Below, piece after piece: positions 12,388 through 53,623 of a DNA stretch of 64,000 nucleotides (within the stretch, counting starts at the first letter, position 1; each line of letters opens with the position of its first letter). Source of the stretch: Octopus vulgaris. Lineage: Eukaryota. The position numbers were made by a program, and so were the translations under genes. A model generated the notes under the pieces. That model did no database searches and was not told the DNA's origin. It saw only the letters and a list, made by a program, of their open reading frames with translations. The stretch spans positions 14,570,001-14,634,000 of the forward strand of contig OX597831.1 in the NCBI GenBank assembly GCA_951406725.2, in the 5' to 3' direction.

Positions 12388-13561
12388 ATGAGGCCCATTC
12401 AAACAACCCTGTTACTATTAGCACTATGTGTGTACGGAGCACTGAGCGTGATTCGGAAAAAAAGAAGCATTTTAGATACGGCCGAAAATCCGAGCGACCT
12501 GCATGAAGCTTTGCGTGTACTTGAACGTGAAAGGCGGCGTTTTCAATTGCATGCAGCCGACGAGGTACTCCCTCAGGAAGGCATACAATATCAAAATCAA
12601 CCGATCATAGTTGATAATCAAGGGGATGACAATGACGTCGTTGATGAAGTTGATGAAGACGAGGAGGAGGATAGTGAAAATGTAGGAAGTCTGAATGATG
12701 CAAATTCTGATAACTTGCTCTACTACGGTCCGGAACAAGCTCGTGACGTACAAAGTTTGATGAGTCAGATTGAAGAAGACCCTTTAGAACGAGCAGGCGA
12801 TCGTGACAGACGTTTGAATTCATTCGGGCTCTCAGATGCAAAAGACGATCTAGCCTTAGATAAGAGGCCTTCACTTGATTCAGATTATAAAAGGCTTTAT
12901 AAAAAGTACGCCAAGAAAATGGCTAAGCGAAATAACTTGACGCCAGAAAACGCCGACGCTGTGGAATCTACATTTAACAACTTAACGCCAGAAGAAATTG
13001 AAAACTTAATTTTACTCGCCGGTCGTTTGCAAAATCGAGAAATCGAAAAGAAGCTAAACATGGATGACTTAACATCTGATAAAAAACGGGACCGAAAGCG
13101 AGGAAAATTTGAAGAAGCAGACGACAGAAACACGCTGAGTGCAGCTGAACTGCGGGATTTGATACAAAACAACGCCATGTCAGACGATATTGATGAGTCA
13201 ACAACAGAAGATGGTTATGGAAGCCGGCAATTTCAGAGAGAAATGGAAGACGAACCAGGAGATAATCTTATTGTTGATGACCAGTCGAATAGCGATTTGA
13301 TGGAGATGAGCATCGGTGATCTGGCGAAATTAGACAAACTACAGCGTCTGCAAAAACAATTCATGAAAGATGCTGAGATTGCTGAGGAAAACAGCTTGAA
13401 TGAACAGGATGAAAATAAAGATGAGAGCTGGGTGCCACAGCAGAGCAGCATGGCAGAAGACTTGGTTCCTGTTTCTGATTCACTGCAAGGAGAGGATGGG
13501 GATGAGGAAGAATCATCAGATTTTAATGCTGAAAATCAAGAAATAGGAACACCAGATATAG
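12388..13561 (+). CDS. First coding exon of a secreted acidic granin-/prohormone-like precursor
   Basis: Polypyrimidine acceptor ttttttgtttttcag ends at 12372 and the ATG is at 12388. Hydrophobic signal peptide MRPIQTTLLLLALCVYGALS is followed by furin-type RKKR. D/E-rich with many KR/RR/KK sites. Donor G|gtttgt at 13561/13562 (phase 1) lies just before the ORF stop and joins in frame to the next exon. Confidence 0.88.
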
Positions 13562-13575
13562 GTTTGTAAACTCAT

Positions 13576-13752
13576 TTCTTCTTCTTCTTCTTCTTCTTCT
13601 TCTTCTTCTTCTTCTTCTTCTTCTTCTTCTTCTTCTTCTTCTTCTTCTTCTTCTTCTTCTTCTTCTTCTTCTTCTTCTTTTTCTTCTTCTTCTTCTTCTT
13701 CTTCTTCTTTTTCTTCTTCTTCTTCTTCTTTTTCTTCTTCTTCTTCTTCTTC
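13576..13752. repeat. (TTC)n tract right after the exon 1 donor
   Basis: Read directly; similar tracts at 2439-2602 and 19299-19392. Confidence 0.95.
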
Positions 13753-13779
13753 TAATTATAATAATAATAATTAGTAGTA

Positions 13780-13972
13780 GTATTACCTCCGCCTTAGCAA
13801 AGGCGGAAGTATTGTTTTCAGTTGCGTTTGTTTGTCCTTGGAGAAGATATCTCAAGAACCGCATGCTGGATTCGGATGAAACTTTCAAGGATGGTTGGCC
13901 TCGTGACTGGCACAAACTGATTAGATTTTGGGATTGATCCGGTACCGGACAAGGATTCTGGATTATTTGTTT
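13780..13972 (+). mobile_element. Helentron/DINE-like non-autonomous element end
   Basis: tattacctccgcc ttagcaa aggcggaag hairpin followed by ttgttttc..gtttgtttgtc..gatatctcaagaacc, a typical HINE-like layout. Confidence 0.45.
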
Positions 13973-14284
13973 TATTTACTTTACATGAAGTATTACGATA
14001 TTACGTTCACTTTCAAGTCTTTCTCTGATTATTTCCCTTGAAGGCAAGCTCATGGTTTCCACGTAAGTTATGGCGGCGTTGCTGTTTTCAAAGTTTTATT
14101 TTCGTTTCTCTGTTATTAATTTTATTCGCGTATTTCGTCTGTCTTCATGTTCTGAATTCAAATTCCGCCGAGGTCGACTTTGCCTTTCATCCTTTCAGAG
14201 TCGATAAATTAAGTACCAGTGAAACATTGGGGTCGATGTAATCAACTAATCCCCTCCCTAGAAATCTGAAGCCTATTATTATTA

Positions 14285-14358
<74 letters not shown>

Positions 14359-16900
14359 AAGACGGCGAGCTGGCATAAACTTTAGATTTCCGGGGAAAAA
14401 GGCCTTGTGATATATGTTGCAGTTCTTTACGTTGTGAGTTCGAATGCCGTCTATGTCAACTTTACCGTTCACCTCTCCAGAGTAAATAGAATAAAGTAGC
14501 AACCTAGCACTAGGGACGAAGGTATCGACCAAGCCCCGCCCCTCAAAATCCCCGGCCTTGTGCCAAAAGCAGAAACCACTTAGTTTTCATGGACTTTATT
14601 TTTTGTGAAGGTAAATAGACAAATGCCTAGAGTGTTTGGTTCACGATTATAATGTGGTTTCAATGTCGGCCAGCGCTTTGTGTCCTTGGGCAACACTGTT
14701 CACTTAACATTGCTTCAGACTACTCCCCTGGAAAGGAGTATTGACCAAGTTCTGGTGCAGCTTTCTCCGTCACCCACTTCCTGCAGCTGTCACAACCTGG
14801 ATGCTCCATGGGTCGGAGGGTAGGACAGTTAAAAAGGTGTCTTTTTAACTGTCTACTCGCGGCTGCAAAGGCACCTATGACAATTAGCAAAAGCACGGTG
14901 TATAATATCTGTCCACATTCATTTGGAAGTGAAAGCTTTTTTATATTTGGATAATTTCACCCTTTCTTTTAGAGATACCAGGTTTTAGCATTATTCGTGA
15001 TTTCATTTTGCTTTTGTGTTTTAATTCTATTTTAGATAGAAATGTTTAATGTTATTTGACTGCTATATCAAGCGTATTCAATAATTCCACAAATGACCCC
15101 TCGTTGGCTCATACGATATTGATTGCCCTCTTCGTTAGCTGAAATGTTTCCAGAATATTTGTAAACAACTTGCAGAAACAAGCGTTACCAGTCGAAAGTG
15201 CTGCAGGCTTACGGGAACATCGAGAGAGACTGCACCCCGTTTCGGTGTCTTGCCCTCGATGCCACTGTTGTGCACCGGTTCCACTTGGTTACCATGTTTG
15301 GTAGTCCAATTGGTTACCATCCCCAGTTGGTTACCATGTTTTACTCAATATTTCTCTAGTCATTACTCATCACCTCTTTTCAACGAAATCCAGTGACTTA
15401 CTTCCTTCTCCACTATAGCCTGGATATCGATCCTGATATTATACTAGGCCTAACGACTACAGCCATCACCTCATACCACTTTCATATCTTTATTATTAGT
15501 TCTGATGGAATCACATCCTCATCAATTGTGTCCCAGTTATGATCATCCTGTATTTGTCGAGCGCTGACTTTCTTAGATTACATTATCCAATGTGTTTTTC
15601 CATTTTGAGATAAAGACATGAAGGTATAATTCAATCTGAGCTTGATTTCACTGCTCTAGCTTATCGGTTGAGTCACCACGATAAAGTCACTCATTGGCTT
15701 AAGATTTTCTCAATATCTTTATTGATTGACTTTTCTGTTTTTTTTTTTTATGGGTGAGAAATTTCCTTTTAATAAAATTGATCGATATTATGCATTGAAA
15801 ATCACATCAAAAAATTAAATTGATCTTTGAATGGTATCATTGATTTTTTCCTTCAAGGTTACGATTTCCTTTAAACATATTCCAAGATTTTGGTTATTAA
15901 AAGAAATATGCCAGTTTAAACAATTTGAAATTCTCACGCCCCATATCACAAATTGGAAAAACAGAGAAAATGTCTTGCTAGTTTATTTATTTATTTCTTT
16001 TTAGAGCGAATGAGGAAACCACTATCTAGTCGCTCGATTTGCTAGAAATAGCAGTGAAATATTTCTCTGATTACACACTTTGCCGTTTTTCTTTTCTAGT
16101 CTAGGCACAAGGCCCGAAATTTGGGGGAAAGCGACCAGTTGACTAGATCGACCCCAGTACGCAACTGGTACTTAATTAGTCGACCCCGAAAGGATGAAAG
16201 GCAAAGTCGACCTCGGAGGAATTTGAACTCAGAACGTAAAGACAGATGAAATACTTGTGCCTAGAGCAGAAGAGAATAATCTAGAGCAGTGCTTCTAAAT
16301 CTGTCGCAACCCAGCCCTCCATTCTCTGAATTGCGTTTAGCAAATTGCAGAACAATAAATAAATAAACAAATAAATCTTGGAGCAGGCAAGGCTGTGTGA
16401 TAAGAGGATTCTTTCCAAATCATATACTTTTGGTTTCAGTCCCACTGCGTGGCAGCTTTGGTAATTATCTTCCAATATAGGCCCGGGCCGACTGAAGACT
16501 TGTGAGTGGATTTGTTAAACGGAAACTGTAAGAAACCCGTCTCATATATATATATACATACAAACACGTGCACATATAAATATATATAAGTATGCATATG
16601 TACTAACGTATGTGTGTTGGTTTCTTTACATCGCCATGACTTAGTAATTAGGTGAAAGAGAACGATTGAATGAATGCAGCGATTGGTTTGTTCGACATAA
16701 CTCAGCATGGCTGCAATCCAATGACTGAGGCAAGTAAAAGATAACAGATAAATAAAAGCAGCAGAGTTTTGAAATCAAACAGAAGTTAGTTTTGCGCTGT
16801 TGCTTAATGTCTATATTTTTGTATAGCACTGTTCCGCCGAGCAGAGACTCCTTTTTAATACCATGGATTTGTTCCCCCTATGTTAAATTACTGTAGAAGT

Positions 16901-17255
<355 letters not shown>

Positions 17256-17703
17256 TTATGCGATGTATATACAGAATTGGTTCATAAGTCTGTTGGGAGA
17301 ATGTACATAGAGCGTCGTCTCACCGGCATCACAACGTCTGATGTTGTTATCTCGACAAAGATTTTGGAGATTGTACTTAAAATATATGTTGTGTCTCGCT
17401 TAAATTTTTTACTTCTAAGTAAAATCACGATGTTCTGAAACATGTGTTCTTTAAGCACGTAATCTCCACTAGATGGCGTTATCCTCCGGTTAAAACGACT
17501 TATTTTGGGTATTTCATATGTGAGTGATTATCCTACTTTTTTCTTGTATAGTGGCTTGCTTACCAACCACACGGTTCCGAGTTCATTCCCACTGCGTGGC
17601 ACCTCGGGCAAGTGTCTTGTACTCGGGCTGACCAAAACCTTGTGAGTAGATTTGGCTGACGGAAACTGAAAGGAGCCTTCCGTATATATGTATATATATA
17701 TAC

Positions 17704-17777
<74 letters not shown>

Positions 17778-18241
17778 TTGTTTGTTTGTGTTTGTCCCCC
17801 CAACATCGCTTGACAATCGATGCTGGTGTGTTTACCTCCCCGTAACTTAGCGGTGCGGCAAAAGAACCGATATAATAAGTACTAGGTTTACAAAGAATAA
17901 GTCCTGGGGTCGAGTTGCTCGACTAAAGGCGATGCTCCAGCATGGCCACAGTCAAATAACTATAACAAGTGAAAGAGAGTAAAAGAGGGTAAGTGAGTGG
18001 AATAAATCTTCTAACGTGTTTCTCAGCAAAGTGTAATTTAAAAGATCTTTGGTCGCTATTTTTAGCATGTCGAATGACAGTGAAAATAGAGATATTTCGT
18101 CGGCTACATTCATTTTTGTCTTACCTCACTGATATAGCATTTGCAATAAATGGTTTCATTTTTCTTAATTTTCCTATGTTCGAATTAGTTTCTTTCCAAA
18201 GCTTTCACTTGAATTTTTCCTTTTTCTGTTTTCGAAAACAG

Positions 18242-18736
18242 CCAAAATCATCGCTAAACTATGGATCAAGCACAAACTAGAAGGAATGGAAATAGATTAC
18301 TTGACTGACGCCCTCAAAGCTGCAACAGCTTCTCAATCAACGCAGAATACAGATGAATCGATTCCAAGAGAAATTACTGATCTTCAAAACGCCATTAAAG
18401 TAGAAAAACTTATGGAAGAACTAGGAAACAAGGAAATAGATTCGGACACAGAAGAAGCCTTGGACAAACTGGCATTGGAATATCTCCGAAGATTTGATCG
18501 TCGTTCAAATGATATCAAAAGTTCTGTAAACAAGAGATCTCGGCCGATTATCAGAATGGCGGCAAACGATTTAGAAAACAATAAAGAAAGCGACTACATA
18601 GGCAACCAACAGAACTACCAAAACAATCTAATGGACGAACCGCTTAGGAAAAACATTCAGTTGCCTTTATTGTATGATATACCAGACAACAGACTTCAAA
18701 TGTTACAAGACAACAGAGAAAACATTCCATCCACGG
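18242..18736 (+). CDS. Coding exon 2 of the acidic secretory precursor (AKIIAKLWIKHKLEGMEIDYLTDALKAA...ENIPST)
   Basis: Acceptor tttttctgttttcgaaaacag|CC at 18241/18242. The phase-1 join gives GCC and an open frame into ORF 18286. Donor G|gtaaga at 18736/18737. Contains RR and KR sites. Confidence 0.88.
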
Positions 18737-18931
18737 GTAAGATAAGCCCCACAACTTTTAATTAAGGCAGACAATTTTTTTGTTATTGTTGCTTATTGTT
18801 GGTTTCTTCGTTGGATGAATTTGTTTATGTTGTAGCTGCTATTGTTGTTTAGCCCTAGGTCTGTTAGATAGGGACTGATTTAGGATCAAAGACGTTCCAG
18901 CCTTGATCATTCCGATTTTTATTCACACACG

Positions 18932-18980
<49 letters not shown>

Positions 18981-19829
18981 GTATGTTCATATAAAAACAG
19001 TGTACATTTAAACACATAAGAGGTATCCATCATAGGATTCTTTTCACGCTAGAAGGAACAGCTAAAGTCCAAACCCCCTATTAAGGATACAAACTCGAAG
19101 GGAATGACGGCAAGAGTTAATAGGATCGCATCAATAATTAGATTAATGACCGTCGTTTAAAGCGAATCGCTGTTTTAACTGAATATTCGCTAATTAATAA
19201 AATCCTAAGATTCAATGCATAAGTCCCTAAGTATCTACGCAGCAAAGAGGTCGGCGTAGAAAGATCTCCTGTTCAAATTTGTCGCCAAGTGAATCTCTCT
19301 TCTTCTTCTTCTTCTTCTTCTTCTTCTTCTTCTTCTTCTTCTTCTTCTTCTTCTTCTTCTTCTTCTTCTTCTTCTTCTTCTTCTTCTTCTTCGACAAAAA
19401 CGCTGTTTTCTGTCGCTTCAAAAAATATTCACAGGAACTCTATGTGTCAACTTGAAAGAAGAAACGTGCAAAATGAAAGTGTCTTTTCTGAAATTCGGAA
19501 GAAATATGGAATTCATGATGCCTAATGTATACGTACACAGACGCACGCAAACACACATACACATACACACACACACATGCAGAGTCATACACACATGCAG
19601 AGTCATACACACATGCGTAAAGATGCGCGCGCGAGTGCACTCTGGTATAAAGCTACATGTATAAAATAAAAGAATTCCTAGTTACAACCACTGGTTGCGC
19701 ATGCGTAGAAGCCATATTTATTGCCAACGTTTTATGTCTGACGTCACTATACATTTCACTAGAAGGGAAAATAATGGTTTTGTTATATTTTTTCTGTTTC
19801 TTGTTGTATTATGTTTAAACAAACAAAGG

Positions 19830-19862
19830 ATAATAACAATAATAATAAACATAATAATAAAC

Positions 19863-19905
<43 letters not shown>

Positions 19906-19982
19906 TAATAATAACAATAATGATAATAATAATAATGATAATAATAATAATAATGATAATAATAATAACAATAATGTTAATA

Positions 19983-20026
<44 letters not shown>

Positions 20027-20091
20027 TAATGATAATAATAATAATGATAATAATAATAATAATGATAATAATAATAACAATAATGTTAATA

Positions 20092-20159
<68 letters not shown>

Positions 20160-20179
20160 TAATGATAATAATAATAATG

Positions 20180-20213
<34 letters not shown>

Positions 20214-20239
20214 TAATAATAATAACAATAATGTTAATA

Positions 20240-20295
<56 letters not shown>

Positions 20296-20300
20296 TAATG

Positions 20301-20376
<76 letters not shown>

Positions 20377-20537
20377 TAATGATAATAATAATAATGATAA
20401 TAATAATAATAATGATAATAATAATAATGATAATAATAATAATGATAATAATAATAATAATGATAATAATAATAATGATAATAATAATAATGATAATAAT
20501 AATAATAATGATAATAATAATAACAATAATGTTAATA

Positions 20538-20596
<59 letters not shown>

Positions 20597-20601
20597 TAAT
20601 G

Positions 20602-20674
<73 letters not shown>

Positions 20675-20760
20675 TAATGATAATAATAATAATGATAATA
20701 ATAATAATAATGATAATAATAATAATGATAATAATAATAATGATAATAATAATAATAATA
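19830..20760. repeat. Compound (AAT)n array with higher-order blocks
   Basis: The marker aacaataatgttaataaat recurs four times among aat/gat/aac variants. Confidence 0.95.
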
Positions 20761-21353
20761 TTTTTCGGTTATTCTTCTATTTATTTATTTTGCAATTTAT
20801 TTTGCGTTTTCTTTAAAATTATCGTTATAGAAATTCTTTTTTAATTATTAATCTAGCGATTGAATTTTTGCGATAACATTATCATTTCCTGGTTGCATTT
20901 TCATAAACATAAAACAGACATATTGAGGCTGCTGTTTGTTTTAATAATTAAACCACAAAATTTACTTTATAAAAATATATAAAACAAATAACAAAAACAC
21001 ATAGAAGTATCGGAGGACGAAGTATTTGCTTTTATGAAAAAAAAAAAAAACGAAAAGAAAAAGAAAAGTCAAACTTCAATTTGTTTCCTTCTACAACTTT
21101 GCTACTGTGCTGCAAATATTCAAAATCAATTAGATTAATTTAAGTTTTGCAATAGCATTGGGTTATTGTAACCTTAATATATTATGTTTACTTCGCTTTA
21201 CATATATATTTTCTAGATTATCAACAAGATTGATTATAAGATTTTCAAAGTATCAAAGACGATTAAAATATATGCCCATTGAGAATATATATATATAGCC
21301 ACTACACACATTTTCTTCTCTCCTTGTTTCTCTCCATATTTTTTTCTGAGTCC

Positions 21354-21389
21354 CTTTCTGTACAAGAGCGTAGGCTCGAAACATAAAAG
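21354..21389 (+). repeat. Decayed hammerhead motif
   Basis: cttt CTGTACA a gagc gtag gctc GAAA ca ta aaag. Stems are intact, the core is mutated. Confidence 0.5.
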
Positions 21390-21501
21390 ATTTTTTCTGT
21401 TCCTCAGCGTTATACTAATACATCTGTTTGTTTTATACACCACCTGTCTTCATCTTTTGTTTTTTTCGTAAACTCTCCCTATATGTATGTATGTATCTAT
21501 G

Positions 21502-21533
<32 letters not shown>

Positions 21534-21744
21534 TGTATGTATGTATGTATGTATGTATGTATCTATGTATATGTATGTAGGCGCTCGGGCGGTGGTGTGG
21601 CAAGAAGTTTGCCTCCCAATTACATGGTTCCGGGTTCAGTCTAACTGCGTGGCACCTTCAGCAAGTCTATTCCACTATAGCCTCAGGCCGATGAAAACGT
21701 AATAAGGAAATTTGGTTGGAGGAAACTGAGAGAAACCCGTCGTC

Positions 21745-21818
<74 letters not shown>

Positions 21819-22460
21819 CATTGAGCTTACGATCGTGAGGTTGAGAGTTCGAATCCCGGATCGGGTTACGTGTTATTTTCTTGAGCAAGACACTTTATTT
21901 CATGTTGCTCCAGTTCACGCAGCTGTCGAAATGTGTTGCGATGTCACAGGTGCCAAGCTATATCGGCCCCTTTGTCTTTCCCTTGGATAACATAAGTGGT
22001 GGGGGGAGGCGAGGCTGGCATGCCTGGTCTTCCATAAACAACCTCGCCCGGACTTGTGCCTGGGAGGGTAACAATTCCATGGTCAGTCATGACAGGAGGG
22101 GCTCTCAGCATATATGTATATATATAACATAAAGGATAAAATCATTAAAGTTAATGAATTTTATCAGTGGCCAGCATATATAAACCTTTTAGGTAAAATC
22201 CATTTATAAAGATATATAATTGCATAGGGTAGAATTATATTTAAGGGCACAAAGCTGTTATGCCTGTATGCTGAAGGACGATGCCGAATACGTCCTACCG
22301 CTCCATATATTCACTCTACATATAGTTACACAGGTTGAAAGCGTTCGCCAGGTGTGTTTTGCTGATGAAAGAAAAGTTAGCAAGCTAATCCAGAAATCGA
22401 TCAATCCAACACTAACTGAATTGTTTCATGGATTTTTAGCCAACCTGCTTTCTCTCTGTG

Positions 22461-22512
<52 letters not shown>

Positions 22513-23073
22513 TGTGAAGGCGTGTAGCCTAGTGGTTAGGCTGTTGCATTCTCGATAGTTAGATCGTGGTTTCGATTCCTTGATTGGGCGGCGCGTTCTG
22601 TTCTTGTGCAAAGCACTTCATTTCACATCATCCAGATCCCCTTCGTTCAGGAAATATTGTTGGCCTGCTCGCCTAACAAGCAGGGTGGCGTCGTATGAAG
22701 GCTAAAACATTGCAAAAGCGCATTATGACCAGCGATGTGTAACAACATCTGATAGCCTGGTCGGTCACGTGATCACGTGATATATATATATATATGAGTG
22801 TGTGTTTGCGGCTGTTTGTCCCAACCCCTCAGCCAACCAGTGTTGGTGTGTTTATGACCCCGTAAATTAGCAGTTCAGCAAAGATTTTATAGAATATGTA
22901 CCAGGCTTATAAAGGGCTTGGTACTGAGGTCGACTTTCCCTTTCATCCTTTCGGAGTCGATAAACTAAGTACCACTTACGCACTGGGGTCGATGTAATCG
23001 ACTTAATCCGTGTGTCTGTCCTTGTTTGTCCCCTCTGTGTTTAACCCCTTGTGGGTAGTGCGCGTGCTTCTAT

Positions 23074-23120
<47 letters not shown>

Positions 23121-24767
23121 AATACGTACTTACATACATACATACATACATACACACAAACACATGCACACACACAGGAATATATATATATGTATATATA
23201 TTAGAAGAAATGAGGTACTCATGTGCCTCATTATATATATACGAAAGAGTAAAATAAACATAGAGATAGGTATATAGTTTCATAGAATAGTTACTTTCGA
23301 AGTATTTTATCATAACTAATAACAAGTGATTACTACACACAGCCCCTATAACGTAATCCGTTTATCAGTTTTTTTTTCTTTGGAATCATTAATGTGAAAA
23401 TAACCACACCAAGCACGCTTAATAGGTTGTATAATTAACAAGCAGCTGCTTTATTCTTTAATGTCAGGAAGTATTAGACATTAAGGAAATAATAAACTCT
23501 TCAGTCAGAGAGATACAAAAAACACACACTACAGGTGATTATTGGATTTAGTCGCAATGTATTAGCAAGATATATGTGCTATTATGGAAATCGGAAACAG
23601 AGTGTAGTCTTTCAGCTGTAAAGTTAATAGGCTTAAGATGCTGTAAGAATGACGAACGTGTTTTGATATTACTAATTCAAAGAGGTTTTTGGCGGTAATA
23701 AGAAGTAAAAATGGCGGCTAGAATACAATGAATGCTTGTAATTATTATATGAAGAATCTAAAGCACTACTTAAAGAATTTAAATAATAGAAGACGTATCA
23801 GACCGGAAAGAGAATGCTACAGATGTTGACTTTAAGAAAATATAAGGGGAAATTCTTGACTACAAAGAAACATATGCGCAAGCATACACACACGTGTTTG
23901 AACATTCACCAAATAATACACATAATTGTAACAGACATGGACACATACACACACACACACACACACGCGTATATATATATTTGTGTACAATATCTCGGCT
24001 GCTTGTTTCTAAATGATTGCCATTCTCTGATATAGGATTCGAACAATACGCCGGTTGCTTTTCTGTAAAATATTAAAATGGCGACGTCTCTAGTCTTACA
24101 ATTGAAGCAAATTGTCATCGTAAAACCCATGCAACGTGTAATAAATCATGACTGCTATGTAATTTACACAGAAATAGTCTCACGATGTCTGCCAACATAG
24201 AATTTTGTATAGGCTAATGTAGCATAAAATTGTAAATGATTATGCTTTGATGCAATGTATTGGTAAATAACGTATGTCGTGGTACTGTGTAACAATTTTA
24301 TAACAACAACAACAGCTACCACGATGGCAACACCGTAGGCGAACACACATACACAGAGGAAAACATGAACTGTACCGAGTTTTCGGGTCTTAGGACAGCA
24401 GCAGCACAATGGGGTGAGAGGATGGGGCTGCTGAGGGGAAGGCCACACTGCAGCCAAAAACTATGACACACACACACACACACACACGCGCGCAAGGACT
24501 GAAACGCACGCGCAAACAGATACACACCTTAGAAGAACAAAAGAGAATAAGCGGAGCAAGAACATACACACGTAAACGAAAAGTGTGTGCCTTGAGTAGA
24601 AAAGAATATTAAATATTGTAATGGAGGAGGCCGGTCGGTGCCCCACCCAGCATAATATATGTACATTTATATATATATATATATATATTGTTGTATTTAG
24701 GAATGGTCATATTGCCAGTTTAGCCAATAAAAACACATAAAAAATCTTGCACAACAAATATTTAAAC

Positions 24768-27350: not shown

Positions 27351-27461
27351 ATCTAACAGACACAATGCAATACCCGATGATGAGTATGGGTGAAAATCCT
27401 ACAATGGACAACATGGTAGACGATGAAATCTCGTTAGCAAGAAATTCTTTACCAAATGAAG
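27351..27461 (+). CDS. Coding exon 3 (111 nt; DLTDTMQYPMMSMGENPTMDNMVDDEISLARNSLPNE)
   Basis: Acceptor tgttttgtgtctgcag|AT and donor G|gtaaat. Phase 1/1, in frame with exons 2 and 4, same acidic composition. Confidence 0.75.
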
Positions 27462-41377: not shown

Positions 41378-41440
<63 letters not shown>

Positions 41441-41691: not shown

Positions 41692-41733
<42 letters not shown>

Positions 41734-42343: not shown

Positions 42344-42388
<45 letters not shown>

Positions 42389-42607: not shown

Positions 42608-42688
<81 letters not shown>

Positions 42689-42690
<2 letters not shown>

Positions 42691-43253
42691 AGTAATAAGA
42701 GAGAGACCATATGTGGTCACTCTAACGCTAGAAATAGATCCGCAAAGGGAATCCACCACTAAAGAATTGTTCTCAAGCATTAATTCAACACGTAAGCGGG
42801 CAAGAACGTAAGCGGGCAGGACAAATGAAAAATAACGAAAAAATGGATTAACTCTATACAATTGTTTCATCGTTAATAGATTGTGTAATTTTACTTACAT
42901 AATCATTTTCGAATCCTCAGTAGAGTATATCAAAAATATAATTTGCTGAACCGAACGCCAAAATCCATACGAAGCCGAGCAAAGGCAAACGGCACAGCCG
43001 ATTATATTTGCAGTTACGTTCAAATATCCTCATTCTTGGCGCGTTGAAAATACCGGATGTAAATACTACCCCAGTAATTTACTGCCGGTTTGAGAACATA
43101 TTAATTTATAATTAAAATCACAATAAGGGTGAAAAAATTGAATATTAATTAATAACATCAATTTAGAACACCAAGTGGCCTAGCGTAAAAAAAACTGGGA
43201 TACAGTAAAAATTATTAATACAAGTAATAAGAGAGAGACCACATGTGGTCACT
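42689..43253 (-). mobile_element. 532-bp unit with partial terminal direct repeat carrying a hammerhead (Penelope pseudo-LTR/retrozyme-like)
   Basis: caagtaataagagagagacc-a-atgtggtcact occurs at 42689 and again at 43221. It starts at a (TA)n tract, and its end motif resembles that of the 6078-7919 unit. Confidence 0.65.
42851..42926 (-). ncRNA. Type I hammerhead ribozyme with 6-bp stem I and long stem II
   Basis: Minus strand reads ACUCUA CUGAGGA uucg..gauuauguaa..uuacacaauc..cgau GAAA CAAUUG UA UAGAGU. Confidence 0.8.
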
Positions 43254-43300
43254 GAAACAAGTAAAAGAATAAAAGAATCTGTATATATAAAATATTAAAA

Positions 43301-43449
<149 letters not shown>

Positions 43450-43457
43450 TATATATA

Positions 43458-43505
<48 letters not shown>

Positions 43506-44370
43506 AACATATTAGTGTATCATTTATGTGTGTGCGCGTGCGTCTGTCTACATGAGTGTACGTGCACGCATATATACATACCTACCTTCAGGTATTAACA
43601 GAAATCTCTCTCTCTCTCTTCGTATATATATGTATATATACATCCACCTACATACCTTCATATACACACACACACACATACATACACACACGCATATCGT
43701 ACACTCATATACAGATAAAGCGCGCGTGTTTGCGCGTATTAGTGCGCACAAGAGACCGAACTTTTAATCTGATACACAACAGTGTATTATCCAATTTCTT
43801 TCAGTTTTCCAGTGATAAGCATACATAAGCAATTACAACATAATGGAATCTTGCCAATTGTTGAGCTTTCATATAATGACAACCTTCCGTTGTCTGTAGT
43901 GGCAATATGGCCGACATATTAAATTAGGCTTCCACCTTCACGGATCCCGATTACTAAACTGTGAGACATGACATGTCCTTCGATAGTTAACACCATTAGG
44001 AGTTGTTGCTGAACAGACACCATGAAATTGTTATCGATTTTTCTTGGTGCCCTCATTTTTGTCTATAGATATGTGTGTTAATATTGTGTGCCTGTATATG
44101 TGTTTGTTATGTATTAATGTTATTATGTGTGTCAATGTGTAACAAAGCCTATGCATATTTATGTACGTAAAATTGTGTAGACGTCTCTGATTAGTTTTCC
44201 TATCTACCAACTCTAGAAATACATATCTGCCTATCTATATACCTACCTACCTACCTACCTACCTACCTACCTACCTACCTACCTACCTACCTACCTACCT
44301 ACCTACCTACCTACCTATCTACCTACCTACCTACCTACCTACCTACCTTCCTATCTACCTAGCTACCAAC

Positions 44371-44409
<39 letters not shown>

Positions 44410-44818
44410 CCTGTCTGCCAACCACTTTATTTATCTATCTATCTCTCTATTCATCAATATATTCACATTTTATATGTGTGTGTATGTGATGCAGTCAAAC
44501 CAACAATGATATTTTGAATGCATTTAATGTGTACGCTTTTCTTAAAGAAAAATCATCTTCCGTTCATATTTTGATATGTCTTAACTGAAGATTTCCGTTA
44601 GAGACGACACTCCCTCTCTTATCTATTTCGCAAATATCTAAAAAGTGCGTAAAAATACATTCCAAACATCATTACTTGCAGTGACTTCATCATAATACAA
44701 ATACGACTGCATTCCAGGACAAGTTAACCAGAACTGACTCCATCAGCACTAATGATATAATAAGGATTTGGAAGGCTTTGTTCTTCTTTAATCGAGTTTC
44801 TTGAATCGGGAATTCTGG

Positions 44819-44887
<69 letters not shown>

Positions 44888-45136
44888 CTGTTGTGTCTGG
44901 GGAGAGTCATTTTCTTTTTGTGCCTTATAATGTAACACACTCACCGGTAAAATTTCCACTTATTTCTTATTTTTATATTCCTAAAATTTTCGCAGCATCT
45001 TGCAACCTTTTCAATCGTCTTGACTCTTATAAGTCAATAGTCTTCTAAGGCACAAAAGGAAAATGACTCTCCCCAGACAGAACAGAATATGCTTGAACAC
45101 TCGAACTCATATAAAGAATCTTGCAAACCAAATCCC
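44888..45136. repeat. Fold-back copy of the 10675 family next to (TA)n
   Basis: 44888-44928 is inverted at about 45047-45086. Confidence 0.75.
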
Positions 45137-45226
45137 AAAACGGTTGGCCCGAGGCTATAGTAAACGAGACTTGCGCAAGGTGCCACGCAGTGGGACTGAA
45201 CCGAAACCATGTGGTTGGAAAGCAAG

Positions 45227-45280
<54 letters not shown>

Positions 45281-45868
45281 ATATATATAAATCTTTCTCT
45301 CTCTCTTTCTGTGTATATATATATATATATATATGTATATTCACACATGTCTTAATAGTTATATGTATTTTTATGTATATTTGTGTATTGTATTTCTCCG
45401 ACGAAATTTTTTCAATGGAAGTGAGCAATTTTCATATTTAGTATTCATTGCAGGAGATGAATGTAAAGTTATATATATCTTTATACTCAACAGACTGCTA
45501 AGACAATCGATTCAACCTCGCATCATCATCATTATTATCATCATCATTGTGTGAACTATTCTAATAAACCTGAAGTCACGCATGCGTTCATGATGATGCA
45601 TTTCGATAAGTCTATCTTGAGATATATTATCGCCACTCTGCTTTTCGATATATTTAACGACCAATTATAAAGTTAGAAACTGCGTCAATAATCTCTCTAT
45701 GTGACTCCTTCAAGTCGCAATTTGTTACTTCAGCAAATTCAAAGTAAATAAATTTATTTTTTTAATCTTTTACTTGTTTCAGTCATTGGAACCCTTTTAT
45801 GGGTTTAGTCGAACAAATCTACAGTGTGTGTGGTAGTGTATGTGTGTATATATATGTATATACATACA

Positions 45869-45941
<73 letters not shown>

Positions 45942-46073
45942 TCGGCCTCCTGTGCCCGACGAGTCATATTTCTGCAACGACTTTACTAAGTTTTAAATTG
46001 CATAAGGCCGAATCAAAGTGTTTTAAACAATAATATATGAGCGCGCGCTCACACACACACACACATAGGTATG

Positions 46074-46105
<32 letters not shown>

Positions 46106-46108
46106 GTA

Positions 46109-46147
<39 letters not shown>

Positions 46148-46390
46148 CATATATATATTATACATATATATATGTTTATATATGTATCACATATATATTA
46201 TGCATATTATATATATATCTATATTAAATATATATATATATGTGTGTAAGTATATGTATATATGTATATTTATATATATATATGTGTGTAATATATAATA
46301 TATATATATATATGTATGTATCATATATATATTATACATATTATATATATATCTATATTATATATATATATGTGTGTGTAAGTATATGTA

Positions 46391-46436
<46 letters not shown>

Positions 46437-46919
46437 CGTGTGAATACGATAGGTTGCTTTTAGCTTCCATCTACTAAGTCCACTCACAAGGCTTTGGTGG
46501 CCCTGGGGCTAAAATATAAGGGACATGCCCAAGCTACCACGTGTTAAGACTGAACCTGAAAAAAGAAATAATAAACTGTGTGGCTTAGAAACAAACTTCT
46601 AAGCACACAAACACGCCTGCGCCTATGTAAAAATGTCCACTGTTGGTTAAGACAGAATTGTGTCTCCAGCGACCCTTGATCGACTGAAAAATGTAGTGTC
46701 ATAATTGTTTCTTACTGGTCATTGCTGCAGCCGTTTTGTTATGGCTAAAAGAATCATGCAAAGCGAACGTGATGCATTTTGGATTTGGTGAACATTAGAA
46801 ACTTTTGTTCAGCAAAGAAAATAAAGTCCACTGTTTGGTAATTAGAATCGCGTTTATGTTTTATATTTAGGAAGTACGGAAAGGGCATATTGGTTATTGA
46901 ATATACAGGCATGCATATA

Positions 46920-47136
46920 CGAGTGGATACTGAAAATCTTCTGGTTTTGAGTACAAGAAAATACAGGAGGATCAGCTAATTATGATTCTGTTCAACACAT
47001 TCCCCTCTCAGACTGACACACTTGTTGCTGCGGTCGTTCAAGTTTTCAAAGCCCTGTAACAGAACTCGGAATTTTGGGCCTCAAATCAAACCTTTAGCGA
47101 TACTCTTAAAATCAAGAACTTTTCAGCATGCCCACG
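46920..47136 (-). mobile_element. Internally deleted mariner (MITE-like)
   Basis: TA-flanked diverged TIRs cgagtggatactgaaaatcttctgg / caagaacttttcagcatgcccacg. The interior resembles a decayed transposase C-terminus. A related single TIR lies at about 37158. Confidence 0.6.
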
Positions 47137-47175
47137 TATGTACCTCTGTATACATACCTCCCACCACCTCGGCAT

Positions 47176-47212
<37 letters not shown>

Positions 47213-47310
47213 TATATATATAAAAGGCATTCCAAAATGTAACTACATGTGGAATGTTGGCGATTTTTCCACTCCTTCTTCCTTTTCTCTTGGACCTTCT
47301 TCTGTCTCCT

Positions 47311-47345
47311 GCTTCTAAAGAAGAGCCTTGCTCGAAACGTAAAAC
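47311..47345 (+). repeat. Decayed hammerhead motif (related to 28381 and 21354)
   Basis: gctt CTAAAGA a gagc ctt gctc GAAA cg ta aaac. Confidence 0.55.
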
Positions 47346-47448
47346 ACCATTTCTTTCTTTCTCTAACCGTCTTATTAATACTTTGCATGTACCACGTCCT
47401 CTCCTCCTGTTGTTTGTTTTGTCTTTTTTCTATTTTTTTTATTAACTA

Positions 47449-47533
<85 letters not shown>

Positions 47534-47574
47534 GCTTAGAGGATATGTTAACCTCATAAATGAATGGTTACATC

Positions 47575-47896
47575 CATTGGCGGACTGGCCAGTTTTCCAG
47601 CTTGTCCGATGACATGTGGGCCCCTGCACCATTAGAATCCATATATGAGGGCCATGTTAATATGTAAGGGACTCACCCCCTCAAGTTTGAGAATTTTTTA
47701 TTCACTCTTGGAAGAATGCTTTAATTATCTCAGCCTGGCCGTGTTTGTAGACAGTTGAAAAGAATACTTTTAACAAAAAATAAAAAATAAAAATGTAATT
47801 GATAGTATTGTAGTTGTGGGTGGGCCCCTTTGTAGTTGCGGGTGGGCCCCCTTAGTCTCCTGGCAACCAATATTTGTAGTCCCCCATCTGCCACTG
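47575..47896. mobile_element. Putative MITE with CAGTGGCGGA-type TIRs
   Basis: cattggcgga / tctgccactg with internal gggcccc motifs near both ends. catc flanks both sides; no 8-bp TSD. Confidence 0.4.
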
Positions 47897-48842
47897 CATC
47901 CAAGGAAACATTGGTTTTACACCTAGTAATTTGGGGAAATGAATTTTCCATAAGTTTTCCTGACAAGGCTTTGGTTGGCGCGAGGCTATAGAAGAAAACA
48001 TTTGCCCAAGTTGTCACGCATTGGAACTGAACCCAGAGCCATGTGGTTGGGAAGCAAGCTTCTTACCACACAGCCACGCTTGTGCCTGTAGTGTAGGTCT
48101 GGTCAATTTCTGTCTTGTCATCATTTCGGTCCCACGTCGATGGTCAAGAACACTTGGCCCTTACTGTTCTGGTCCCTCAAACTGCTAATACTTTTGCATG
48201 GAGTAAAGCGATTCTCTGCTGCAGGCAGTAAGAGTATCGAAAAATTGATATACGTGATTGTTGCTGTAACTGTTGCTATAGCAACTCCATACTTGTCCAG
48301 ATCGATCGAAAGTATGGCGCGTGCATCGTTGGCAGAAGGATCAGAATCGACTACCAGATCAATAGATTAATAGAACAACTTTCACGGAGCAGGCAAACAT
48401 TGAAAATATTTTCCCCACTAAAAATGCGATCACACAGCCATTAAAAGATTAGATTTTTAAAAGGTATTTCGCTTGATTTTCTATGAATAATTAAATTTCC
48501 AAAATAGAGATATAAAATATTTTAAATGCTTTAAATGTGGCCTACTAACATTCATAAGGTAAAAATAAAAGTCGTTTTCACATCTGGATTAGATTTATAT
48601 TTCACAAACATAAATTTGAAAAACTTGATCTAAACGGAGACGCATTTCATTCACTTTCAGTGAATCGATTTTCGATGGCAACGTGTCATCATGAGAGGTA
48701 AATACTCAAATATACATTAATAATGCAAAATGGAGTCTCTGGGTAACAATGGAAAAGTAGTAAAACTTTATTTTTTATACATTATTTACATTATTTACAT
48801 TTGACAGATATTTGTCCTCATTTTGTTTGTTGTTAACCCAAC

Positions 48843-49299
48843 GTCTGCGCTGGCTCGGCCATGTACATCGCACGCCGGATGGAAGGATCGTAAAAGGCCT
48901 TCTGTATGGGGAAAAGGTCACAGGCACAAAAGCACGAGGACTACCTCATCCTCGAGTCAAGGACGTCTGCAAGAGAGATTTGAAGTCGCTTGATATGGAC
49001 GTCCTAAAATGGGAGGAGGTTCGAAATGATACTTCACGCTGGACACAAATACTGGGAAAGGGGATGAAGAGAGGGGAAGAGAAAGAGAGATCTCGCCACC
49101 GAGGAAAACCGCACTCGGCGGAAGTAAAAAAAAAACAGTAGCTCCAGTATAGAGCTCCTTCAAATGCAGCCGCTGTGTACATGACTGCCACTCCCGTGTG
49201 GACCCCAGCGGACACAGCAGGTTCTTCAGCTACATCAGCAGCTTATGCGATTTCTTCGAGCTCAGATCCATGGAGTCTCAAAACCGACGGATGACTACT
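48843..49299 (+). mobile_element. RTE-clade LINE 3' fragment
   Basis: RLRWLGHVHRTPDGRIVKGLLYGEKVTGTKARGLPHPRVKDVCKRDLKSLDMDVLKWE...RW is the typical RTE/BovB ORF2 C-terminus, followed by a decayed CxxC..H segment. Confidence 0.85.
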
Positions 49300-50226
49300 A
49301 AACAGCAGCAGTAACAAGTGGAGGCGCAATGGCCCAGTGGTTAGGGCAGCAGACTCGCGGTTTCGATTCCCAGACCGGCAAGGGGTGGTGGCGACCCCTG
49401 TTGTACTCTTTCGCCCCAACTTTTTCTCACACTTTCTTCCTGTTTCGGTGTCCCCGACTTCCTACGCAACCCCTGAGCCTGGATGCGCATTCATCCATCC
49501 GTCGATGCTATCGGTGTCAGGGGTTGACCTGCTTTCTCTTCTGCGGGTCTTACGTATAGCAAAGGACCACGTTTCGGACTTGTCCCATCTTGCGAGCTCT
49601 GGGACGAAGACCGTTCGCTCAACAGCAACAGAAGCAGTAACAACAACAACAACAGCCGTAGCAATAACATCAACAACTAAAACTATACATCAAATTGTGT
49701 TTATTTGAAATAGTGGCTTCAAGTTTTGGCACAAATCCAACAAGCTTGAGTTGCGGGTAAGTCGATCACATTGACCTTAGCTTTCTAATTGTATCTATTT
49801 TATCGACGTCGAAAGGATGAAAGGTGAAGTTGACCACGGCGGAATTTTTTAACATGAAACGCTTCCAAGCAACTTGTCCGGTTGCTAGCGATTCTGCTTG
49901 ACCGCTGCCCTAGTTGTTTGAAATATGATATTCAATGATTTTGTTTTGACCATGTTTTTAAGTCCCCTCTGACTGTTTATTCAACCAAAGTATTTTATCA
50001 AGCCGCCACTCACCAAAACATTTTATGAATTTGACGCAAATTTTAATATGGAGTCTCTTCATGTAATCCTTTGATATTCATAATTTGCCGTTAACAAATT
50101 AAAATATTTAAAACAAAATAAATTTAGATATTCCTAACTAAACTAGCAAAGGTGATCGTTTTGTCTTGCTTCTGAATCACGAACCAACTAAATTAGAAAT
50201 GCTATCATTGACTGATTGTTCCTTAA

Positions 50227-50429
50227 CCCTTTTGATATGAATCCGCCTGAAACCGTCCTTGGGGTCGAGGATACAAACTTCCTGTCTAAATTAAAATCTT
50301 TCATCAAAAAGTTTTGTTTCAAACACTATTTTGATGATAACAAAGTAATTTGAAAGACTTCTTCAATATTTTCAAATTCAATTGAAATTAAAAGTAGTGT
50401 ATTGCGATAGAAATATTTTATCGAAAAGG
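50227..50429. mobile_element. TTAA-flanked MITE (piggyBac-like)
   Basis: ttaa|cccttttgata ... tatcgaaaagg|ttaa. Confidence 0.5.
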
Positions 50430-52153
50430 TTAAGCTATCTCCGAAATAGAAAGTCACCATGTTTCACCCCTGACCTATGGATACTCTGTAGAAACATAGT
50501 CTAAAAAGAGATAATAGAAAACAACAACAGCAGCAACAACAACAACAACGAAAAATTCAGTGTCTAATGTTCTTATTTCTAGTTGTCGCGTCTGTAAAGT
50601 TAGTATTATTTATATTTCATAGCATTTTCACTTTCAAAACATATGTCAGCTTCTTTAAATTGCCGTCTGTTCTAGAAACATCGATTAAAGAAACAAAGTG
50701 TGAACGAGTTGTGTATTGAGAGAATACACATACCATGGCTGAATGTTTAAGAATTCCGTTTCGCAGTCCTGAGGTCTTCGGTTCGATCTCGCTGCATGTC
50801 ATCTCCCTCAAGTGTCTTTTACCTTAAACCTCGTTCGATTCTAGCTTTATGAGTGAAATTGTGTTGACGGAAACTGTGTGGAAGCCATACTGAGTGAATT
50901 GTGCCTGCAACCCAAAAGGTTTCCCCTTGTCACACTAATTCTGTCAGTGAATTAGTTTAAGCTTAAACGCGTCTGTGGAATACTCAACCGTTTACACAAA
51001 AATGAAATCCATTCATTTATCGCATCATAGATTAAGACAGTCGTTAGAGCGTTTGACAAATGCTTTGAGGTAATCATGGCGGCCGTTTGCGATCGAACTT
51101 CAAAATAGCGCCGATATCAACTTTGCCTTTTACGAACTAAAACCTCCTCCTCCTCCTCTCATTCTCTTTATCTCTCCTTGACTTTCCCCCTCGCTTTCTC
51201 TCTCCCTACTCCTCTCTCCGCCTTTATTGCACCGTGACAGTGTCAAGGGAGACAACTCATAGTCTCCCTTGTCTTCAGAAATGGAGGATGGTCGAGACAA
51301 AACCTACCAACCTTTCTTTCTCTCGCAAACACCATGTCTCCAAGGAGAAGAAACGTTACTCTATCTTGGATTTTACGGGAGCGGGAAACTCTTTCTTCTG
51401 CATGGCTCGTCCTTCTTTTTCGCCATTGTTTTTCTTGTTCTTTCCACTGTTCCCGTCAGTCTGCCACTCCGCTTAATTTTCCATCTCCTTCACATCATGA
51501 AAGATACCGATGGTTATCCAACAGTATATGTTAGGGGAAGGGGAGTCGTTGTTCGTCGGTTTTGGGAACTGACAACAACGAGGTAATCTCTTCTTCCGTT
51601 TCCGGAGCAGTGGCAGATGGTAGCTGGTACTGGATGGTACCAAAAGTTTCTGTGGACTTTCGTTGATGCAGTTTCTGCTGACCTCTTCCCTAGCTTTCGA
51701 CCTCCTTCGGAAAGGAAAACCTCAAATGATCTTTCCTGAAATCTGCGCTGTTTGTTCGACACCATTAGTCTTATGAATTTTCTTCCTGCACCCATGACGA
51801 GAGCACAACGTTGGAATGGTCTATGGCGTTCTATAGCGTGGGCTTTACTGGAATCTGCATAGATCCACCTGGTTACATATTGACCACATTTCCGAATTTT
51901 ATCACAACGGAATCGCTAATATTCTTCGCCGTGATTTTTGTGTTATATAATCCTAAATATTGTGAAGTAAATCTCAGACAAGGTGTGTAACTCTCAAGCC
52001 TGGCTTGTATTTTTCGCTCCGTTTTAAGTTTCGAATACTGTGCTTATAGTTCCGTAAGCTCTTCTCCCTCGATCGAAGAAATATTATTCCATATACTGGT
52101 CAGTGTTGCTATTTCATGGGGCAGGGAAAAGGCCTGTATGGATATCGAGATAC

Positions 52154-52874
52154 AAATATTTGTTACATTTTGATAAGAGAGTGAGATAGTGAGATAGCGA
52201 TGCATCTTCTTTTGTAACACATCTTTGCCAGGAAGACTTTCTCTACCAGATAATCCGTGATTTAACTTATTTATTGGAAACCGCATTAGTAAAAGCATGG
52301 GCGATGATATTTCTAGCTTATATTTTCGTTTGGAAAAATGTGTGTTATTATTGTTACAGTATTTGTTATTGCAATTGATATTTATGTCATATAATTTGTT
52401 GAAAATAATTTTATTATTTTCTATCAGAAAAATTCTCGTTCTTTTTTCCTCGTGTAATATGTGTATTCTGCTGAGAAAGTGAATTTGCTTTCTTTTTGTT
52501 TATTTACTTTTCGTAAAATTCTTCTTGTGTTGGTGGGCGTTTGAAGAAATATCATTCTTAATTTGGAAGCTGAAGAAAAAACTTTCTTTACAAATCAAAG
52601 CCATTTTCATCCAAAACACTGGTGAAAGAAATACAGAAAATTAAATTCCCACCTCTTCATGTTGAAGGTCGGTTCACAAAAATATAAAACAAAAAATATA
52701 AAACAAAAATATTTGTTACATTTTGATAAGAGACTAAGATAGTGAGATAGCGATGCATCTTCTTTTGTAACACATCTCTGCCAGGAAGACTTTTCTCTAC
52801 CAGATAATCCATGATTTAACTTATTTATTGGAAACCACATTAGTAAAAAGCATGGGCGATGATACTTCTAGCTT
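52154..52874. repeat. ~165-bp direct duplication (52154-52319 and 52707-52874)
   Basis: aaatatttgttacattttgataagag...aagcatgggcgatgata-ttctagctt occurs twice, about 553 bp apart. Confidence 0.85.
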
Positions 52875-53278
52875 CGAGAAATGTGCAATTATTAAAGTTT
52901 TATATTAGAGATGAATTACAGAAGCATTCGAGATACAGAGTCTTCACTCTACTCTCTTTTTTCATTTCAGTCTCTCATAAAGACAATTAATAGGGTGTCA
53001 TATCAATTTATTTATGGAGCATATGAGGTAGGGATCTACATGTTTAAGGTTTAAACGATAAAAATAATTACATGGTGTTAGTAAGAAAATATTTTGTAAG
53101 AAATAGAACTTTTATCATCGGTCTTAAATTTATTTTCGCCAGTGTAGTTGGCGGGTTGGGTAAAAATTCGTTGTAAGAAAAGGAAGCGGTAATAATTCAA
53201 AATAGCATTTTGTGTCTCTTATTAAACGTAGACATACTGTAGATTTATCTATGTATTGTTTTTTAATTTATTCTTCAG

Positions 53279-53623
53279 GTGAGAATGATGTTGAAGAAGA
53301 GGAAAGTAATGACGACGATGACGATGTTGATAATGAAGAGGAAAACGAGGAGGAAGAAGAGATGGAGGATGACGTTGCGAGATTCGAAAATGCGAAAAAC
53401 TTGAAAGAGCAAGAGTTATCGGACTTGGCAGCATTAAACGCTGAAGAGGAAAGAGAAGAAGAAGCGGCGTTAAATTTTCGAATGATGCTCGATGAACTGG
53501 ACAAAGAAAACAAACTTCGGAATAGACTGCTGGAAGAAGAAGAAGCAGAAGAAGAAGAGGAGGAGGAAGAGGAGGCAGAAGAAGAAGCCGAAGAAAGACG
53601 GCGAGAAGAAGAAGCTGAAAAAG
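53279..53623 (+). CDS. Coding exon 4 (345 nt; Glu/Asp-rich, predicted helical/coiled-coil)
   Basis: Acceptor tttttaatttattcttcag|GT and donor G|gtatgt. Phase 1/1. The E-rich sequence uses mixed codons and is not a pure microsatellite. Linkage across the 26-kb intron is inferred from phase and composition. Confidence 0.75.

Follow-up and report, generated by a model that had tools for sequence, protein, structure and literature searches.

A probable relative of insect fliktin with a phospholipase A2-like C-terminal domain in Octopus vulgaris

The stretch of Octopus vulgaris DNA analysed here (the window, 64,000 nucleotides [nt]) carries part of a gene for a large acidic secretory protein, the rest of which lies outside the window on the same contig (C18) (Table 1). 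A first-pass annotation had proposed four spliced exons on the plus strand, encoding at least 708 amino acids (aa) of a granin-like precursor. This structure was confirmed by the AG/GT ends of the exons, by 708 codons in frame with every joint in phase 1, and by contigs from RNA-like runs. The first open reading frame (ORF) extends over 393 codons, well above chance, as the longest stop-free runs in 30 shuffled windows reached a mean of 131 and a maximum of 158 codons. Beyond the window, two more exons contribute a domain of 104 residues to these 708 codons, which brings the full ORF to 812 aa in a gene that spans ~177 kb. A stricter first genome search revealed a single locus in the octopus genome, with no expansion seen.

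Table 1. Coordinates of the exons and sequence features of the octopus gene (window positions unless the contig is given)
Feature	Position	Strand	Remarks
5' untranslated region (UTR) exon, outside the window	C18:14487588		~95 kb upstream of the ATG exon
Coding exon 1	12373..13561	+	begins with 15 nt of 5' UTR and encodes aa 1-391; acidic and predicted to be largely disordered, predicted local distance difference test (pLDDT) <50 over most
ATG start	12388	+	inside coding exon 1
Predicted signal peptide	12388..12447	+	aa 1-20; Kyte-Doolittle 19-mer maximum 2.05
RKKR site, first peptide (aa 27-46) with the N-terminal family motif (N-motif), RERRR site	12454..12540	+	
NNLTPE peptide (aa 182-213)	12931..13026	+	predicted to form an amphipathic helix; not conserved as an amidated peptide
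Coding exon 2	18242..18736	+	aa 392-557; includes conserved helical hairpin aa 389-479
Coding exon 3	27351..27461	+	37 aa; alternatively skipped (RefSeq X2)
Coding exon 4	53279..53623	+	aa 594-708; Glu/Asp-rich tract and long predicted helix
Two further coding exons, beyond the window	C18:14660315-14660427 and 14664216-14664416		10-Cys phospholipase A2 (PLA2)-like domain and stop codon

Transcript evidence was drawn from contigs of four RNA-like runs, whose RNA label is a guess and whose tissues are coded. Contigs stopped at the borders of exon 1 (12370/13561) in 4/4 runs, with loose ends entering exon 2 and the upstream exon. The joint between exon 4 and the next exon was present in all four runs and that between exons 3 and 4 in two of them, while runs X1 and X6 each provided a single contig with exons 1 and 4 placed 604 nt apart, which corresponds to exons 2 plus 3. 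These contigs, joining exon 4 to exon 3, exon 1 and the next exon, place it in the same transcript, a point that the first-pass annotation had left in doubt; the RNA mapping proposed there as a check of the junctions thus revealed exon borders and joints, and the 5' UTR and terminal exons were located as well. In O. sinensis as well as O. bimaculoides, RefSeq lists isoforms without exon 3 (X2) or without the hairpin-bearing exon 2 (X3, P0006/P0007); the two exons are phase 1-1 cassettes, and the run contigs held joints of the full form only. The 812-aa ORF differs from the O. sinensis RefSeq protein (P0003) at five residues, and at four of these positions the window matches the O. vulgaris model P0004. 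The latter is probably wrong at the start of exon 1, because contigs of 4/4 runs cross 12373-12560 without a gap; it translates this stretch in another frame and rejoins at ~aa 58, with loss of the signal peptide and the first peptide.

The full-length protein has an isoelectric point (pI) of 4.27 and an Asp plus Glu content of 25% (27% in the window part). The signal peptide, the immediate RKKR (aa 23-26) and the many basic sites of the proposed acidic secretory precursor were all recovered in the translation, together with the listed peptide strings, and the (-3,-1) rule suggests cleavage of the signal peptide after Ser20. The sole Cys encoded in the window is C14, inside the signal peptide, so that the reported lack of further Cys holds for this part; the full protein contains 10 more. 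Hydropathy of the mature chain peaks at 0.71 and the ORF stops after the Cys domain, which indicates that there is no membrane helix. Indeed, of the downstream transmembrane or catalytic domain that would have spoken against the granin-like reading, the former is absent (0/36 family members have a transmembrane-like segment) and the latter is present as an enzyme-type fold devoid of the Ca2+-binding Asp. IA-2/PTPRN and NPDC1 identities are excluded by the lack of a transmembrane segment and by the end of the ORF after the Cys domain. In the predicted model, 388/812 residues have pLDDT<50, with helical islands between them, and the exon-2 hairpin reaches 84-94 over aa 401-450; the low-confidence acidic body is, judging from this model, likely disordered. 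A Pfam search of the octopus proteins returned no significant match, fold searches with the full 812-aa model retrieved generic helical hairpins only, and an ESM Atlas search with aa 1-500 gave no usable match.

The last two exons encode a domain of 104 aa with 10 Cys, in which His-Ala replaces His-Asp in octopus. A phase-1 intron immediately precedes this domain in the octopus gene, and another, in phase 0, follows its C-Y-x-C motif. Modelled in isolation, it adopts a confident helical fold (pLDDT 91, predicted template modelling score [pTM] 0.83), in which the Cys residues presumably form disulphides. A family profile matched P0052, a stand-alone secreted PLA2 (sPLA2) of 121 aa from Mercenaria that has the His-Asp pair and passes the cut-off of Pfam Phospholip_A2_3 (PF09056), with 98% probability and E 1.6e-13 in hhalign; P0052 in turn matched the bacterial PLA2 structure PDB 8k1w at E 4.7e-9. 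The direct fold match was weak: Foldseek with the domain ranked 8k1w first, yet at E 3.0 and a template modelling score of 0.42, and VIA-align against the fungal PLA2 4aup yielded Z 5.2, a root-mean-square deviation of 3.9 and 19% identity over 79 aligned residues, values that unrelated helical proteins tie. Profile A1 did not find PLA2 among PDB sequences, and the shorter profile A3 found PLA2s only at E 0.26 and 0.37; matches of the domain to PLA2G12/Phospholip_A2_3 clusters in the ESM Atlas, at 0.80-0.81, serve as a lead only.

The C-x-x-H-x-x-C-x-x-C motif occurs in 175/193 proteins of at least 100 aa, many of them from drosophilids. The residue that follows the His is Gln, Glu, Ala or other in 174 of these 175 sequences, and Asp in P0052 alone. 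In a lineage-picked set of 42 sequences, the His and the Tyr were each kept in 41 and the second-helix Cys-Asp in all 42, with Glu at the Asp position in 17. In established sPLA2 chemistry the Asp after the His binds Ca2+, and on this basis we read the domain as a putative pseudo-PLA2 that would have kept the PLA2 fold and the hydrogen-bond core while losing the Ca2+ ligand. A search of the octopus genome with P0052 identified no stand-alone sPLA2 from that query and was not informative.

The protein had been regarded as molluscan and as lacking any recognisable family, neither of which holds: phmmer and profile tests revealed relatives across Bilateria, and the same plan recurs in insects, chelicerates, a brachiopod, an annelid, a crinoid and an acorn worm. 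A phmmer search against 1.84 billion representatives returned 45 matches, of which 16 were looked up for names; the 12 named ones, all non-insect, belong to the bivalves Sinanodonta, Argopecten, Mactra and Mercenaria (the latter being the stand-alone sPLA2), the gastropod Haliotis, the brachiopod Lingula, the annelid Dimorphilus, the chelicerates Tachypleus, Centruroides (a scorpion) and Nephila (a spider), and the deuterostomes Saccoglossus (an acorn worm) and Anneissia (a crinoid). A further match, P0047, led to 137 proteins, and the named ones among the best 120 of these are insects; the clusters reached from it include Drosophila CG2269 and Halyomorpha XP_014283619.2. XP_014283619.2 is given as the match of PaOGS36577 (PMC10570428), which equals Pea-NPLP and fliktin (PMC9552230), and the Tenebrio Pea-NPLP precursor in the supplement of the latter paper displays, by eye, the same N-motif and 10-Cys end. 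Insect members (P0058-P0176) bear spurious automatic names such as DNA ligase 1, trichohyalin, KAT6A and nucleolin, which are likely composition-driven and may have hidden the family. One member, P0036, runs on into a von Willebrand A domain, which could reflect a genuine fusion or a merged gene model.

The shared architecture was assessed in 36 full-length members chosen for spread. A signal-like start was evident in 33; the last domain holds exactly 10 Cys in 35, and in 35 there is no Cys in between; the N-motif L-x-x-A-L-x-x-L-x-R, a pattern written after viewing the alignment, is found in 28/36 versus 0.6 in shuffles. Cross-profile tests, with shuffled and reversed sequences as decoys, connected the groups in both directions. 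An insect-only profile scored the octopus protein at 44.8 bits and 31/31 non-insect targets at 31-120 (best of 186 decoys, 7.4), and a profile of non-cephalopod lophotrochozoans scored 28/28 insects at 20-59 bits (best of 252 decoys, 8.3). Upon removal of the Cys domain, the lophotrochozoan and insect N-motifs still aligned in hhalign with E 3.2e-5 and 73% probability, versus E 0.15 for the reversed control. Likewise, an [ED]L-x-x-[ILVM]F motif, chosen after viewing the alignment, is present in 18/20 other lophotrochozoan-type, 26/28 insect and 3/4 chelicerate proteins, with shuffle means of 1.3, 1.5 and 0.3, respectively. In a tree of the domain (43 rows, one outgroup), insects, cephalopods, the gastropod-type group and Ambulacraria were starred, chelicerates being less firm.

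Several observations weigh against this connection. The EL-x-x-F motif is absent from 5/5 cephalopod-type and 2/2 deuterostome proteins, the deep branches of the domain tree are unsupported and the order of the major groups was not recovered. The central hairpin, well kept in lophotrochozoans, placed 0/28 insects above decoys, gave no hhalign match and aligns with insects by position only; the lophotrochozoan N-motif hidden Markov model alone raised 4/28 insects above the best decoy. Moreover, insect members are less acidic (median pI 5.5), and the Cys-domain profile gives the stand-alone sPLA2 P0052 49 bits, level with insects. Because P0052 scores like the insects and the deep tree is unsupported, orthology rests on the architecture plus the two end anchors. 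On these grounds the octopus gene is likely orthologous to insect fliktin/CG2269, and we file its product as fliktin-related rather than as insect-type fliktin, since the insect core motifs are absent and the central helix has no match.

We then compared five cephalopod-type sequences, including those of O. bimaculoides and Argonauta, for conservation of the four peptides put forward in the first-pass annotation. Only the first was conserved, with 82-100% identity over aa 35-51 in the four other proteins. The proposed NNLTPE repeat and its possible amidation were not: the G-R gives way to GN in O. bimaculoides and to KF in Argonauta, the first repeat unit is not kept, and predicted helices at aa 187-197 and 201-225 cover the region. 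An amidated NNLTPE peptide was accordingly rejected, the G-R lacking a dibasic site, lying inside a predicted helix and not being conserved. PSLDSDY was discarded as a conserved peptide as well, the preceding KR being NR in O. bimaculoides, and so was SNDIKSSVN, with 0-11% identity outside Octopus. Neither repeated paracopies nor conserved amidation were found in this comparison. By eye, L-T-P-E-E-I (12982-13020) resembles a stretch of a beetle NVP-like precursor (PMC9552230 supplement), which may be chance.

Conservation outside Octopus is concentrated in three blocks, namely the N-motif, the hairpin of exon 2 (53-59%) and the Cys domain (59-79%). Over aa 52-389, identity to Argonauta and two further cephalopod-type proteins drops to 23-25%, with the composition kept; poor conservation between basic sites combined with a kept composition would suggest the pattern of a matrix protein, not that of a receptor ligand. 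The octopus RRR near the domain is kept neither in Argonauta nor in two other cephalopod-type proteins. Domain release is not general in the family, because a KR/RR site lies no more than 15 aa from it in only 9/36 members.

The insect relatives add information on peptides and tissues. In beetles, mass spectrometry identified non-amidated peptides in the antennal lobe, the corpora cardiaca and the frontal and terminal ganglia; the listed peptides include neither the N-motif nor the Cys domain. In cockroach, fliktin was found in the brain and retrocerebral complex. Ganglia and corpora cardiaca contain these insect peptides in abundance, and the authors of that work consider them possibly hormonal. 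In the larval central nervous system, Drosophila CG2269 is differentially expressed in no clusters other than the monoaminergic ones (PMC9404646). It marks each of the three serotonergic fru clusters (PMC9891730), and three supplement rows, of 54 occurrences, show it in 30-88% of cells. In the passages on fliktin it is regarded as an insect precursor whose function is unknown, and the Cys domain is not mentioned.

Together, these data indicate that the octopus protein is probably a regulated neurosecretory product, and for its main job we lean towards that of a granin-like matrix or packing protein of neuronal dense-core vesicles. The initial alternative of a granin analogue or novel proneuropeptide is thereby retained in part: the acidic secretory precursor, the insect peptides in ganglia and the monoaminergic fly marker agree with it, and its restriction to molluscs and lack of a family do not stand. 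The protein would enter the regulated secretory pathway, with cleavage by PC1/PC2 at sites including RKKR and RERRR; its acidic tracts and short amphipathic helices would bind Ca2+ or amines and condense at low pH. As the weakest step, the disulphide-locked pseudo-PLA2 domain would act as a non-catalytic lipid- or protein-binding module, tying the matrix to the vesicle membrane or being co-released. We prefer a matrix role to that of a pure ligand precursor because composition is kept while the sequence drifts, expression of the fly gene is broadly neuronal with an aminergic peak, and paracopies and amidation are lacking. To be set against this proposal, the near-invariant His, Tyr and second Asp of the domain (41, 41 and 42 of 42) could signal retained function. 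A bolder and distinctly tentative extension would make the family an ancestral bilaterian dense-core-vesicle matrix protein: ahead of the protostome-deuterostome split, a secreted PLA2 would have been joined to the end of an acidic prohormone-like chain, shed its Ca2+ ligand and become a membrane-sorting module, the family being the counterpart of chromogranin in invertebrate aminergic and peptidergic neurons and CG2269 the fly 'chromogranin'.

The matrix role has to be weighed against a classical proneuropeptide or protein-hormone precursor, in which the acidic stretches would be spacers and the signals the first peptide and/or a released Cys domain acting on a receptor. Basic sites do flank the first peptide, the C-terminal half of which is better kept between octopus and insects than any other motif; the Cys domain folds confidently on its own, and the abundance and possibly hormonal nature of the insect peptides point the same way. 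However, the scarcity of cleavage sites within 15 aa of the domain (9/36 members), the octopus RRR that is not kept, the lack of repeated paracopies and conserved amidation, beetle mass-spectrometry peptides without N-motif or domain, and the seemingly broad fly expression render a pure ligand precursor rather unlikely. Both readings are compatible, as granins yield active peptides too (PMC8311481). It appears improbable that the C-terminal domain has remained enzymatic, as a lipase of low activity or without need of Ca2+ that the acidic pro-region would hold latent until convertase cleavage. Such a lipase would account for the His, Tyr and second-helix Asp retained in nearly all 42 sequences, the 98% hhalign probability to a His-Asp sPLA2 and the Glu at the Asp position in 17/42, yet the Asp after the His is missing in 174/175 motif-bearing sequences, octopods having Ala there, and loss of this Ca2+ ligand in Lys49-type PLA2s goes with a lack of catalysis (PMC4188610), in agreement with established knowledge.

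An extracellular or biomineral matrix protein like otoconin-90, for instance of cephalopod statoliths, is also suggested by the highly acidic tract that immediately precedes the inactive-type PLA2 domain, and the coded tissues of the runs would accommodate a salivary or venom-gland product. We nevertheless hold such an origin to be quite improbable: insect proteins of the same architecture have neural products, the convertase-type sites are conserved at the N-terminus, and the stricter first search detected one genomic locus and no expansion. Least probable of all seems true, distant homology to a vertebrate granin (secretogranin II/III or chromogranin) whose Cys domain vertebrates would have lost. 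Composition and layout are alike and the family reaches hemichordates and echinoderms, but no granin Pfam family was matched in 31 members at E<=0.1, and no chordate appeared among the 12 named non-insect records (16 of 45 matches looked up).

Elsewhere in the window, a nest of inverted repeats with 92-99% complementarity and arms of up to 322 nt occupies 6079-7942, in the long first intron, and is transposon-like or a local assembly tangle. The stop-free stretches at 58192-58701 (-) and 48764-49138 (+) look like transposon debris and gave no convincing Pfam match; one of them has a short tandem peptide repeat, and the other resembles the reverse-transcriptase end of a long interspersed nuclear element. 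An Rfam scan of the window returned no match.

RefSeq already contained the octopus gene, with no function assigned, and a name existed for the insect branch. A literature search, outside which the original fliktin papers lay, found no link of fliktin to CG2269, to non-insect genes or to the PLA2 fold; among the matches listed, the literature on fliktin, PaOGS36577 and Pea-NPLP dealt with insects only, and neither family accessions nor family motifs were found by text search. The motifs were not found in supplements of the spiralian (PMC8557429) and oyster (PMC8398477) neuropeptide catalogues, where line breaks can hide them, nor were family names or accessions found in the three supplement files searched of the octopus brain atlas (PMC9712504). 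The octopus gene likely represents, for lophotrochozoans, a fliktin-related precursor that ends in a pseudo-PLA2 domain and is distributed across Bilateria. Genes of octopus, molluscs and fly that have so far carried uninformative names (glutamic acid-rich protein-like, trichohyalin, DNA ligase 1, CG2269) would thereby be joined in a single lineage that reaches from insects and octopus as far as acorn worms and has a recognisable pseudo-enzyme domain. To our knowledge, chromogranins are lacking in invertebrates and what packs their dense-core vesicles instead is unsettled; in the passages covered, 7B2/secretogranin V is the only granin-type protein named for them. The family thus offers a candidate invertebrate granule matrix protein that is testable in Drosophila, as well as a likely marker and a missing entry for cephalopod neuropeptide catalogues.

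Compared with known systems, the domain shares the C-x-x-H-x-x-C-Y ... C-D core with small sPLA2s of the prokaryotic, fungal and group XII type (PF09056, PF06951), of which conodipine is a further small secreted example; in contrast, the octopus family has the Asp after the His replaced and the domain fused behind 250-900 residues of acidic precursor. Otoconin-90 is an acidic protein with inactive PLA2-like domains. It and Lys49-type PLA2-like proteins reuse a non-catalytic PLA2 fold as a binding or scaffold module, as is proposed for the octopus domain, although in another PLA2 subgroup and context. With fliktin/Pea-NPLP, the octopus protein has in common a signal peptide followed by an L-x-x-A-(L/V/I)-x-x-(L/V/I)-x-R motif, a long Cys-free body with many KR/RR sites, and a C-terminal 10-Cys domain in which the His precedes a non-Asp residue. 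It differs in lacking, by inspection, the insect core motifs W-S-x-Y-F-G and Y-T-G-A-H-E-G, in a central hairpin without detectable similarity, in its greater acidity and in its His-Ala.

Granins (chromogranin A/B, secretogranin II/III, VGF) are similarly acidic and hydrophilic, with a signal peptide and multiple basic sites, and are described as secretory proteins cut into peptides in neuronal and neuroendocrine cells (PMC8311481). A further likeness lies in the enrichment of the fly relative CG2269 in aminergic neurons. Chromogranin A, for its part, goes with catecholamines. Differences are that no granin Pfam match was obtained in 31 members (E<=0.1) or five octopus proteins (E<=1), and that we know of no granin with a PLA2-like domain. 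The octopus protein would work like a granin as far as composition and, for insects, tissue are concerned, but its sequence does not make it one.

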